Shown: positions 59,622 through 62,042, counted from the stretch's first letter. The stretch: 64,000 nt of DNA from Alphaproteobacteria bacterium (GCA_045634545.1 JAZRAL010000009.1:6470-70469), one strand, 5' to 3'. The notes: generated by a model not told the origin, from the letters alone. Numbers and translations are program-made.

Positions 59622-59666
59622 AAAAAAAGCAGAGAACATGGTGGTAAAACCACCAATATTCTCTGC
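59622..59666 (-). terminator. Rho-independent terminator of OMP cassette gene 1
   Basis: aaaaaaaaGCAGAGAAcATGGTGGtaaaaCCACCAaTATTCTCTGC: a 16-bp stem plus a T8 run on the minus strand. Near-identical copy at 60981-61023. Confidence 0.65.
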
Positions 59667-59683
59667 TAATTAATTTCGCAAGG

Positions 59684-60655
59684 TTATTTGTTGCTAATGT
59701 TGGTCTTGTGACGGAACAGACCAAAATAAAATTTCACCGTAGCCTGAACCTGATGAATTTTAATCTCCTGACTGTTCTGTACAACAGAACCAGAATTGAT
59801 ATATTCAACTCCGAACGAAATCTCGTTACCGGTAGCAAACCAGCGATAAGAGTACTCAAGACCCACAGAAGGGTCGAAACGATTCCCCCAAGAAGAGAAG
59901 TTTTCACTTCCTGTCTTGTACCATTCCCAGAGGAGGCCTCCGGTGACATACAAGCGGTGCTGGTCAAACCTGTCCAATTTGAAAGGCTTAAGTCCAACAT
60001 GCAACTTCGTGCCATAAGTTGCATACTTTTGGTGTTTCAAACCATCCTGAGCATATTTATTATACTCATTCATGGCAAGCTGTCCCATCAAGGCAATTCT
60101 ATACCATGACTGACTGTGTGAAACGCCAAGGTTAAGAACCGGTGTAGAAATGCCTTCCGTTGCGTATCTGTAACCAATTCCTGCAACGAGTGATGCTCCA
60201 TCTTTAAGAGCATAACGCTTTGGCACCATATAGGTTTCACCGCCAAGATTAACTTCGTAACTCTCAACATCCATCTTCTTTTTATCGAAGCAATTGTCGA
60301 GGTTTACATTTAATTTTGATCTTTCAGAAAGTTCTGAGATACTAGCAACCGTTGCGCTATCATTAACTACAACAAAACCATCAAGAATGATCTCATTGTC
60401 TTTAACGATATTTTTTCCAGAAGCCATATAGTACTTCTTTACAAAGTACTTCACAACTTCACCCTCTGTTTCTGTCTTAACCAACACCCTAAGGGTGTCT
60501 GTCTGGTTCGCCATAAAATGAGCTATCACTGCTGAATCGCTCATCTCAACCGTCTGGATCTCATGACCCTTGACATTAATAACCTGCGCGTTAGCGCTTA
60601 CTGATGTGGCAAGAGCCACTACCATCATGATGATGGCAAAAACAACTTTCTTCAT
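59684..60655 (-). CDS. Putative outer-membrane beta-barrel surface protein (cassette paralog 1)
   Basis: Start taken at MKKVVFAIIMMVVALATSVSANAQ (signal peptide). The MAWGENIQKS extension in the ORF track is probably untranslated leader. The C-terminal 180 aa show alternating hydrophobic/aromatic beta-strand pattern. Confidence 0.6.
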   Translation of the reverse strand: MKKVVFAIIMMVVALATSVSANAQVINVKGHEIQTVEMSDSAVIAHFMANQTDTLRVLVKTETEGEVVKYFVKKYYMASGKNIVKDNEIILDGFVVVNDSATVASISELSERSKLNVNLDNCFDKKKMDVESYEVNLGGETYMVPKRYALKDGASLVAGIGYRYATEGISTPVLNLGVSHSQSWYRIALMGQLAMNEYNKYAQDGLKHQKYATYGTKLHVGLKPFKLDRFDQHRLYVTGGLLWEWYKTGSENFSSWGNRFDPSVGLEYSYRWFATGNEISFGVEYINSGSVVQNSQEIKIHQVQATVKFYFGLFRHKTNISNK

Positions 60656-60982
60656 ACTTTTTTGAATATTTTCGCCCCAAGCCAACTTGCGCCAGCTTAA
60701 GACTTTGAATTTAACTTAAATTTTTTTCACACTAATTGTTAAAAAAAACATGTTAAACTATTCAAGACATACGAAAGTTTCTCTTGCTACAACCAAGCTC
60801 TAACTCCATAATATATCTAGAATAATTTAACATGTTACATATTTTAACACATCAACTATACCATATTTTTTTATTATTTTCAATATCTTTTTGCCAAAAT
60901 TGTCAAAATAAATAAAATTATCCCATTTTTAAACAAAATGCACTGTATTTAAACTATTATATCAATCAAATTTTCTCACAAA
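60656..60982 (-). repeat. About 330-bp duplicated upstream/promoter block (copy 1), at least 95% identical to 61730-62042
   Basis: tttgaatattttcgccccaagccaacttgcgccagcttaagactttgaatttaactt..cacactaattgttaaaaaaaacatgttaaactattcaagacata.gaaagtttctcttgctacaaccaagctctaactccataatatatctagaataatttaacatgttacatattttaacacatcaactataccata is shared almost base for base. Confidence 0.7.
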
Positions 60983-61023
60983 AAAAGCAGAGAACATGGT
61001 GGAAAACCACCAATATTCTCTGC
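60981..61023 (-). terminator. Rho-independent terminator of OMP cassette gene 2 (copy of the 59622-59666 hairpin)
   Basis: aaaaaaaGCAGAGAACATGGTGGaaaaCCACCAATATTCTCTGC. Confidence 0.65.
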
Positions 61024-61045
61024 TAATTAATTTCGCAAGGTTTAC

Positions 61046-61729
61046 TTATCTCGGGCTAATACTGAATGTCAGTCCAACGCTAGCGGTAAAACCGCTTGTC
61101 GACCACTCCTGACGGCCTACTGAATGTTTTATACTAGGCATATGAACATACCCAGCACTTACATATCCATTAAGCCATTTGCAGAACTGGATGCTACCCT
61201 CAATACCAACCTCGGCACAAAGACCAGCATTTTTTGAGAAAGTCTCCGCATTAGGGTTGCTGTCAGATTGGTGTCCAGCATAACCAACACCCACATATGG
61301 TGCAAGATAGTGGCGGAAGTTCTTGTCCTGAACTACCTTCCACCCACCGATTGCCATAGCGGTGTACGTATTATAACGCCCCTGCTCAGAGCTTTCAGGC
61401 GTAAAGGCCATTCTTGTGTATGAACCTTTCACTCCCATAAGGAAGTTACAGGTTTCATACAAAGCGCCAGCACCCACTACAGGGTAAAAATTCCCCTGTA
61501 TCAAATTCATTCCGCCTGAAACTCTAAACAAAATCTGATGAGCGAACTCACCGTCCTTTGTGTGGTGACCATCGTTATGGTACGTAAATGTTTTACCACT
61601 GTTGATAGCTTTCACCTGTTCCAACGAGAGTTGGTCAGTGTTGGTTTTTCTTAAACCTTGCGCGTTAGCGCTCAAACTTGTGGCAAGAGCCACGACCATC
61701 ATTGCGATGGCAACTACAATTTTCTTCAT
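61046..61729 (-). CDS. Putative outer-membrane beta-barrel surface protein (cassette paralog 2)
   Basis: Start MKKIVVAIAMMVVALATSLSANAQ is a nearly identical signal peptide to paralog 1. The mature region is unrelated in sequence to paralog 1 and beta-strand-like. Confidence 0.6.
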   Translation of the reverse strand: MKKIVVAIAMMVVALATSLSANAQGLRKTNTDQLSLEQVKAINSGKTFTYHNDGHHTKDGEFAHQILFRVSGGMNLIQGNFYPVVGAGALYETCNFLMGVKGSYTRMAFTPESSEQGRYNTYTAMAIGGWKVVQDKNFRHYLAPYVGVGYAGHQSDSNPNAETFSKNAGLCAEVGIEGSIQFCKWLNGYVSAGYVHMPSIKHSVGRQEWSTSGFTASVGLTFSISPR

Positions 61730-62042
61730 ACTTTTTTGAATATTTTCGCCCCAAGCCAACTTGCGCCAGCTTAAGACTTTGAATTTAACTTATTTTTTTC
61801 ACACTAATTGTTAAAAAAAACATGTTAAACTATTCAAGACATATGAAAGTTTCTCTTGCTACAACCAAGCTCTAACTCCATAATATATCTAGAATAATTT
61901 AACATGTTACATATTTTAACACATCAACTATACCATACTTTTTTATTCTTTTCAATACCTTTTTGCCAAAATCGTCAAAATAGATAAATCTAAACCCATT
62001 TTAAACAAAATGCACTGTATTTAAACAATGTATTTAAAAGTA
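61730..62042 (-). repeat. Duplicated upstream/promoter block (copy 2) with two TGTATTTAAA motifs at its distal end
   Basis: See 60656-60982. Ends with aaatgcactgtatttaaacaatgtatttaaaag directly after the smr stop codon. Confidence 0.7.

Follow-up and report, generated by a model that had tools for sequence, protein, structure and literature searches.

Why should two adjacent genes whose mature products have no detectable homology begin with nearly the same promoter, leader and signal peptide and end with nearly the same terminator? The question is raised by a stretch of 64,000 nucleotides (64 kb) from an Alphaproteobacteria bacterium (GCA_045634545.1, JAZRAL010000009.1:6470-70469), referred to here as the window, in which gene A (59684-60655) and gene B (61046-61729) are tandem open reading frames (ORFs) for predicted outer-membrane proteins (OMPs), both on the minus strand. 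The initial annotation likened the arrangement to antigenic-variation or cassette-exchange systems. Our comparison with related genomes points to a different answer: A and B are probably tandem barrel genes whose expression module is homogenised by intragenomic gene conversion, a form of segmental concerted evolution. It is the distribution of sequence identity that leads us to infer gene conversion. The genes and the blocks that they share are as follows.

59684..60655, minus strand: gene A, a 323-aa precursor: signal peptide of 24 aa (cleaved between ANA and Q), then an N-terminal domain (about 125 aa) and 8 predicted beta strands in the C-terminal region (ORF, AlphaFold2)
61046..61729, minus strand: gene B, a 227-aa precursor: signal peptide as in A, then a short N-terminal segment and a predicted 8-stranded beta barrel (ORF, AlphaFold2)
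60584..60957, minus strand: 5' expression module before gene A, comprising the GTTTAAATACAG boundary motif, promoter, leader of about 190 nt and signal-peptide codons (60584-60655) (alignment, repeat finder)
61658..62029, minus strand: 5' expression module before gene B (alignment, repeat finder)
59622..59685, minus strand: 3' module of gene A, an intrinsic terminator with a hairpin at 59629-59666 and a U run (repeat finder, fold)
60980..61042, minus strand: 3' module of gene B, an intrinsic terminator with a hairpin at 60987-61023 and a U run (repeat finder, fold)

Pairwise alignment placed the common 5' sequence at about 370 bp, running from GTTTAAATACAG through the end of the 24-codon signal peptide, and the repeat finder recovered it as two pairs of segments, 60720-60957 with 61792-62029 (238 nt at 95%) and 60585-60730 with 61659-61804 (146 nt at 89%). 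The A and B copies are 96% identical over the 300 nt upstream of the ATG and 85% identical over the first 72 coding nt, which specify the signal peptide MKK[VI]V[FV]AI[IA]MMVVALATS[VL]SANAQ. At the 3' end, 40 nt of a 64-nt block are 100% identical and one extra A lies in the hairpin loop; both terminator hairpins fold at -26 kcal/mol ahead of a U run (z = -6.5 and -6.8). Pieces of the flanks of 21 nt and 28 nt occur exactly twice each in the 64 kb, compared with 0.05 and 0.00 copies expected, and the duplication is therefore beyond chance. Between these blocks, the mature parts have no detectable homology (BLASTP E = 7.3; hhalign probability 0.2%).

The initial annotation had described near-identical 5' flanks with a common signal peptide, near-identical terminators and unrelated mature bodies, and it is right in every factual point save small numerical details. 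The shared coding part comprises 24 codons rather than about 30, and the mature proteins, given as about 300 and about 200 aa, do differ in length but measure 299 aa (A) and 203 aa (B).

The closest contig to the window is NCBI SUUK01000002.1, from Alphaproteobacteria bacterium isolate SIG44 (L001 in our numbering of contigs). Its gene order is SecB, Tim44, MltA, Smr, OMP array, 91-aa ORF and rpsA, and the OMP pair of the window likewise has smr, mltA, rpsA and a 91-aa ORF as neighbours. The number of OMP genes varies by strain: the window has two, L001 has four (B', A', B, A) and L007 has at least three (A', B, A), its contig beginning within A'. In L001, B' and A' have a common 5' module and signal peptide (MEKKR.FILVMIVAVATVSACAQ) distinct from those of A and B, and their products are 31% identical to B and 43% identical to A, respectively. 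Remote homologs of A occupy the smr...rpsA locus in L010/L011, L012/L013, L016, L017 and L018, whose genomes have GC contents of 33-44%, and the A/B pair of L014 lies at another locus.

We compared eight A/B pairs from seven genome lineages (the window, L001 with two pairs, L010, L012, L014, L017 and L018). Within-pair percentages were computed for six of the eight; those of L017 and L018 come from the repeat finder, which gave 300-nt 5' repeats at 99% and 100%, respectively. The 300 nt upstream of the start codon are 83-98% identical within a pair, compared with 58-68% between lineages, which is the background level. Likewise, the first 72 coding nt, the signal-peptide codons, are 85-100% identical within a pair and at background between lineages. 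This identity is independent of gene order (B-A, or A-B in L017) and of locus (L014). In the window, L001 and L012 it stops at codons 17-21; in L014 it extends to codon 45 and in L010 to codon 78. Beyond that point the genes group by type: at E <= 1e-3, all A-A (28/28), B-B (21/21) and C-C (6/6) barrel comparisons gave matches, type C being a third barrel of some relatives, and A-B comparisons gave a single marginal one. Every pair that we examined combines a single barrel of type A with a single one of type B.

The 5' modules also share details that are peculiar to a strain. A hairpin close to the start codon reads AAGCUGG-CGCAAG-UUGGCUU in both copies of the window and CUUCUAG-CGCAAUG-UUGGAAG in both copies of L001 and of L007. 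Such hairpin variants and variants of an A/T-rich spacer are common to the A and B copies of one genome, and some copies are mosaic. The earlier proposal that the flanks recombine is borne out by these variants. In addition, B of L010, L014 and L017 has an N-region homologous to A N-domains of other genomes (E = 1e-3 to 3e-8), showing that A and B share an ancestral 5' half. Since the N-terminal domain is homologous in relatives, the 5' identity is traced to paralogy refreshed by gene conversion. We prefer this to antigen-switching cassettes because all related genomes that we examined show the same A/B pairing.

The 5' module contains a predicted promoter and a structured leader, composed as follows.

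60855..60883, minus strand: sigma-70-like promoter of gene A (TTGAAA, 17-nt spacer, TATAGT, extended -10 TG), found by consensus scan with 10/12 matches
61927..61955, minus strand: sigma-70-like promoter of gene B, with the same elements (consensus scan)
60888-60908 (A) and 61960-61980 (B), minus strand: upstream element TTGACA..GGCAAAAA (consensus scan)
60730..60854, minus strand: leader RNA element of gene A, in which a long-range helix of 22 bp surrounds a variable insert (covariance model R1, 92.5 bits)
61802..61926, minus strand: leader RNA element of gene B (covariance model R1, 91.7 bits)
60674..60703, minus strand: proximal leader hairpin of gene A, AAGCUGG-CGCAAG-UUGGCUU, extended (fold)
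about 61748-61777, minus strand: proximal leader hairpin of gene B, the equivalent of that of gene A

The promoter is preceded by TTGAC[AG]...GGCAAAAA and by a ATTTGTTTAAAAA motif. This architecture is recognisable in all lineages, and from it the transcription start was predicted. The predicted leader of about 190 nt (198 nt were folded) has a minimum free energy of -56.1 kcal/mol (z = -7.2). The 22-bp helix, predicted by RNAalifold on six lineages, has 83% of its cells paired, compared with 39-50% when the partners are slid, and double changes occur at 8 pairs. Its covariation score is 0.42, compared with 0.27 +/- 0.04 in shuffled alignments, and none of 500 shuffles reached 0.42. A covariance model built from six sequences and scanned over 206 kb detected the leader before every A or B gene with upstream sequence available, except in pair 1 of L001; this includes copies outside the training set (L009, the B copy of L012, L011 and L013). 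It gave no match elsewhere in the 206 kb than upstream of A and B genes. The proximal hairpin keeps its stem through three double changes between the two strain variants given above. Between it and the AUG lie about 21 A-rich nt that are predicted to be unpaired. A start region of this kind, with no Shine-Dalgarno sequence, is found in all lineages, whereas neighbouring genes have GGAG-type sites. Judged from the sequence, the module is functional and constrained.

No Rfam 15 family matched the modules at E <= 1, and two weak matches elsewhere are attributable to chance. We regard the leader as a candidate new RNA motif of the clade. In Escherichia coli, the abundant mRNA of the OMP gene ompA is stabilised by a long structured leader, its 5' untranslated region, which small RNAs also target. 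Both leaders are long and have stable stem-loops upstream of an accessible start, the function in A and B being a prediction; unlike ompA, the A/B leader starts translation without a Shine-Dalgarno sequence, and the two have no sequence or Rfam relationship. An upstream ORF in the leader (MELELGCSKRNFRMS) was considered and dropped, as it is not conserved in other lineages. The B' and A' leaders of L001 (6565-6809 and 7500-7761), those of pair 1, which the covariance model does not recognise, have a strong hairpin of their own, UUUGUUACUA-CGAGA-UAGUAGCAAA, just before the start codon.

We propose the following course of events. An old duplication of a gene laid out as module, N-terminal domain and barrel would have given rise to A and B. 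In the window's species, B would then have lost its N-domain, so that homology now ends at the signal-peptide cleavage site. Gene conversion would keep the promoter, the structured leader of about 190 nt, the start without a Shine-Dalgarno sequence and the Sec signal peptide ending in ANA before Q near-identical, and would homogenise the terminator to a lesser degree. The barrel bodies, too dissimilar to recombine, would evolve separately, conversion being bounded where homology stops. Each gene appears to be its own transcription unit, and identical signals for transcription, translation and export may provide co-regulation and matched dosage. As a by-product, the direct repeats would allow units to be gained or lost between strains, and whole units have apparently been added or removed in this way. 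The two-gene state of the window could have arisen by loss of pair 1 through a crossover in the promoter core. We looked for the scar of such a deletion; the junction is mixed and ambiguous, compatible with the event and no proof of it.

Several points weigh against this explanation. The sequence compared amounts to 64 kb for the window genome and at most 21 kb per relative, so that module copies may exist elsewhere, and every sequence is a short-read metagenome assembly. In particular, the 99-100% identical repeats of L010, L014 and L018 may be collapsed or mis-scaffolded in part, and the B gene of L010 contains an N gap. The leader of L001 pair 1 differs from the others and was missed by the covariance model. 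The role of the leader, like the transcription start, is a prediction. Finally, concerted evolution does not itself account for the deviating third-position GC content and codon usage of the bodies, in which CAG reaches 85%, compared with 11% in the background and 0% in rpsA, and the converted flanks, at 26% GC, fit poorly with simple GC-biased conversion.

Concerted evolution of parts of OMP genes has a precedent in Helicobacter pylori, in which some segments of the paralogs babA/babB, sabA/sabB/hopQ and homA/homB are more alike within a strain than between strains and others group by gene type; copy number and locus occupancy vary among strains, and gene conversion is RecA-dependent (PMC3960876). 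The A/B pairs resemble these genes in having a segment that is closer within a genome than between lineages, together with bodies that group by type. In H. pylori, however, the paralogs are scattered over separate loci and homologous from end to end, homogenisation affects coding sequence (the 3' end in bab and hom), and conversion yields functional chimeras that change adhesion. In contrast, A and B are adjacent, their mature parts cannot be aligned, the homogenised part is promoter, leader and signal peptide, and chimeras of the bodies are neither possible nor seen. What the A/B pairs would add is a clean natural case of gene conversion confined to a regulatory and export module, in which two non-homologous proteins have one promoter, leader and signal peptide in common; within an uncultured clade of gut alphaproteobacteria, eight gene pairs show the pattern independently. 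The novelty lies in this variation on a familiar evolutionary process, in two OMP families that lack annotation (one of them without a Pfam or PDB relative), in a candidate leader motif and in an anomaly of codon usage.

A bolder form of this explanation, to which we give a modest chance of being right, would make the shared module an undescribed regulatory unit, a clade-specific structured leader RNA (covarying 22-bp helix, proximal hairpin, start without a Shine-Dalgarno sequence) that controls two cooperating barrels, such as a hetero-oligomer or an adhesin-porin combination. Selection for identical control would then sustain conversion in each lineage, the repeats could drive frequent deletion and amplification and with them surface heterogeneity within populations, and recombination-associated GC-biased conversion would explain the elevated GC content at third codon positions (GC3) of the two genes.

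The base composition of A and B is deviant. The mature parts have GC contents of 41.3% (A) and 45.4% (B), compared with 26.6% for the shared upstream flanks and 33.3% for the window. Bodies richer in GC than their flanks had been noted before, at mid-40s against low 30s per cent; the enrichment holds, and the flanks are in fact in the mid-20s. The GC3 of A (0.435) and B (0.447) lies outside the range of 0.148-0.282 for the 47 other window ORFs of at least 150 aa, about 6 standard deviations from the window background of 0.21 +/- 0.035. The comparison of the bodies with other genes thus upholds the anomaly. In relatives, the GC3 of OMP genes and of their neighbours was as follows.

L012: OMP genes 0.47-0.54, neighbours 0.31
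L014: OMP genes 0.34-0.42, neighbours 0.23
L017: OMP genes 0.34, neighbours 0.21
L018: OMP genes 0.34, neighbours 0.25
L010: OMP genes 0.51-0.57, neighbours 0.44
L016: no difference between OMP genes and neighbours

The excess is thus present in five of the six relatives measured (L012, L014, L017, L018 and, weakly, L010). Therefore, it is not peculiar to the window genome, and a single recent transfer is insufficient to explain it. The window OMP genes favour CAG (0.85), GAG (0.54), AAG (0.47) and ACG (0.27), compared with frequencies of 0, 0, 0.17 and 0 in rpsA. Translational selection of the host type for high GC3 was rejected, as rpsA prefers C-ending pyrimidine codons and A-ending codons for Gln, Glu and Lys. 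The excess may stem from the exchange of alleles with relatives richer in GC or from GC-biased gene conversion, the locus being prone to recombination.

Such a composition could also mean that GC-rich bodies, or the whole B-A pair, were recently imported from a GC-richer organism behind a resident module. We consider this unlikely. Import would explain the jump in composition at the junctions of module and body, the GC3 of 0.43-0.45 in a window averaging 0.21 and the codon usage unlike both the background and the highly expressed rpsA. The second pair of L001, 31-43% identical to the first, has an intermediate GC3 of 0.32, homologous pairs occupy the same locus in relatives with 39-44% GC, and both the start without a Shine-Dalgarno sequence and the AQ end of the signal peptide are unusual for this genome. 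However, because the GC3 excess recurs, import would have to be repeated in every lineage, and AT-rich flanks and signal peptide accompany the bodies in each. There is no close donor either, the nearest non-conspecific relatives of A being at most about 32% identical among 1.84 billion representatives, and all eight contexts examined are alphaproteobacterial, seven of them at the smr...rpsA locus. Of the earlier suggestion that the deviating GC reflects horizontal acquisition or different constraints, then, the deviation stands, and one import into this genome is an insufficient explanation of it. High GC3 is not by itself a sign of recent transfer, since the excess recurs across related genomes.

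The recurring pairs also bear on the possibility that the identical flanks are recombination handles through which an expression site exchanges one surface-exposed body for another, as in msp2/p44, vls, Opa and vlp/vsp systems. The locus invites this comparison in that identical 5' and 3' flanks enclose dissimilar bodies, gene number differs by strain (as had been asked of the locus, and as the window, L001 and L007 bear out), A alleles such as P0014 and P0015 vary block-wise among strains, and metagenome contigs often break within the flank. Nevertheless, we consider such a system very improbable here. A tblastn search with mature A and B found no silent or promoterless body elsewhere in the 64 kb, pieces of the flank occur exactly twice in the same stretch, and the leader model matched only upstream of A and B genes in the 206 kb scanned. 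Both genes carry a complete promoter, leader, start codon and terminator. With one A-type and one B-type barrel in every pair, the bodies are not freely assorted, and a swap of A and B between identical expression sites would yield nothing new. There are no slippage repeat tracts: a promoter 9-mer present in two copies is all that Tandem Repeats Finder reported, homopolymers reach at most T8 and A7, each of them within the leader, and the promoter spacer contains a run of A6-A7. No recombinase gene was called between smr and rpsA, and a scan of GTDB representative genomes with signal-peptide patterns confirmed A-type relatives at this locus alone. What the flanks conserve is a set of signals for regulation and export; they do not correspond to the coding ends of a single variable antigen.

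The known switching systems differ from A and B accordingly. The vlp genes of Mycoplasma hyorhinis and the vsp genes of M. bovis stand in tandem and encode surface proteins; from gene to gene, the 5' non-coding region and the signal peptide are highly conserved and the mature region diverges. They are the closest match to A and B in layout, and the resemblance is one of layout only: their products are lipoproteins with a lipobox, whereas A and B have a signal peptidase I site (ANA before Q) and no Cys; they switch through long poly(A) promoter spacers or site-specific inversion, whereas the longest spacer run here is A7; and their mature regions are repeat-rich variants of one kind, whereas A and B are two fixed barrel types. 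Anaplasma msp2/p44, Borrelia vlsE and Neisseria opa likewise combine conserved flanks with variable surface-exposed sequence, and Opa and Msp2 are small barrels. In contrast to A and B, msp2 and vls systems have one or few expression sites with many silent donors, opa genes are many full paralogs with phase switching by a coding repeat (CTCTT), and msp2/p44 and vlsE conserve the coding ends of one protein around a hypervariable centre, the conserved parts of A and B being non-coding sequence and signal peptide. Identical flanks around different bodies alone do not signal antigenic variation.

Mis-assembly or mis-scaffolding of a metagenome-assembled genome as the source of the duplicated flank is hardly credible: although all sources are short-read assemblies, an N run with a local duplication lies inside the L010 B gene and many contigs end in the flank, the module copies of the window are resolvable and distinct because they differ at 4-15% of positions and by indels, each is fused in frame to a different intact ORF, independent assemblies recovered the B-A arrangement in the window, L001 (NCBI) and L007 (ENA), a contig that starts just upstream of A (L002, JGI) agrees from A on, and unique sequence flanks both sides wherever those contigs reach.

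Gene conversion in the module would act on genes for two quite different proteins. The AlphaFold2 model of B, with a predicted local distance difference test (pLDDT) score of 68.5 overall and of about 80 within the barrel, has 8 antiparallel strands; Foldseek matched it to OmpA-TM, OprF-N, NspA, OmpW, Ail and OmpX (E = 9e-6 to 1e-4). We therefore predict B to be an 8-stranded OmpA/OmpX/OmpW-like barrel, with OmpA-TM, OmpX/Ail, OmpW and NspA as its best structural counterparts. Its match to Pfam OMP_b-brl (PF13505) scores 21.0 bits, under the gathering cut-off of 28.7 bits, and the type C genes of relatives match this family weakly. The model of A has a pLDDT of 46.8, with strands at residues 153-315. 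This confidence is too low to assign a fold, and the fold search gave no significant match; A has no Pfam match. Structure prediction, which the initial annotation had looked to for the barrel family, thus supplied one for B and none for A.

Only 37 clusters matched the A profile in a HMMER search of 1.84 billion representatives, and 26 family A members had no consistent Pfam family, no OMP family match and no PDB relative. Compared with the PF13505 clan, sequence scores stay sub-threshold and family A has an extra N-terminal domain. The last strands of A and B end in ...VKFYF and ...VGLTF, but the short tails GLFRHKTNISNK and SISPR follow, so that the proteins themselves do not end in an aromatic residue.

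The signal peptide ends in A-x-A before Q in at least 90% of 26 diverse family A members (P0020-P0052, alignment A8), and also in types B and C. Of about five other secreted window proteins, only one starts with Q. Such ends are reminiscent of the 'Q-rule' of Bacteroidota. A Bacteroidota origin, suggested by the AQ ends, the missing Shine-Dalgarno sequence and the G-ending codons, was set aside as weak speculation, as no Bacteroidota homolog or context was found and every context is alphaproteobacterial. Over residues of about 170-235, the metagenomic A alleles P0014 and P0015 have long stretches identical to window A interrupted by discrete differing blocks, for example STPVFGIGAAYTQSWFEFELTGQ and TNFDAKVKLAKFDRFDQKCLYL. 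This pattern suggests that they are mosaics formed by recombination between strains.

The smr...rpsA locus contains further secreted or barrel proteins in several genomes.

59277..59552 of the window, minus strand: 91-aa ORF with a signal peptide, an acidic tail and a GGAGG ribosome-binding site (ORF call, relatives' loci)
L010 9251-9841; L012 9173-9787; L016 1460-2071; L018 3642-4259: type C genes

The 91-aa ORF has a host-like GC3 of 0.24. A small acidic ORF lies 3' of the OMP array in all six smr...rpsA lineages, either directly or one ORF later (L016, L010/L011), and the L014 locus has no counterpart; the ORF probably belongs to the locus, not to the repeat. Its products, 87-111 aa long (window 59277-59552, minus strand; L010 9954-10280; L012 9951-10268; L017 10412-10702; L018 4354-4617), keep the motif PLPG.PGVEVAP, have a very acidic C-terminus and match no Pfam family. 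Type C genes encode B-related barrels of 196-205 aa between A and the small acidic ORF. They end in an aromatic residue (...RFYF or ...RVYF), have a different 5' region of their own and are absent from the window's species.

Word-based homolog searches returned conspecific or near-conspecific relatives only, and the signal-peptide scan of GTDB representatives re-found the SIG44 contig alone. Scans of a metagenome-contig collection gave no matches to protein patterns and two chance matches to a DNA pattern, in unrelated coding sequence (L004, L005); this collection is evidently without the organism. In practical terms, the module repeats break short-read assemblies at this locus. Breaks or N gaps fall exactly at the repeated 5' module in L010 (6777-6870), at the starts of L006, L008 and L013 and at position 1 of L007, and the smr...rpsA OMP locus is likely mis-assembled or truncated in many metagenome-assembled genomes.

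Elsewhere in the window, 3284-4946 and 17361-20451 (minus strand) hold five paralogous genes built of 99-nt (33-aa, ankyrin-like) repeats, with the common N-terminus MSE.ILE.QL..II..K.MAE..KLAK.DML..LGV.VN. Arrays of ankyrin-like repeats are typical of host-associated or intracellular bacteria. Beside these genes lie three copies (4148-4192, 17308-17352 and 20530-20574) of a 45-nt dyad-symmetric element, GTCATCCCTCGATTGC.TT.AGCAATCGTCAAGGGATC, which may be a repetitive extragenic palindrome (REP)-like element or a shared terminator. The sequence GTTTAAATACA occurs three times, compared with 0.19 expected. Lastly, the decamer TTTAAATACA lies at 50267-50325 (minus strand) and also at 62016-62041 and 60944-60954. 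Three copies directly follow an OprB-like porin gene and precede a lipoprotein gene, and it is repeated twice behind smr, where the OMP module has its 5' edge; envelope genes could share it as a binding site for a protein.

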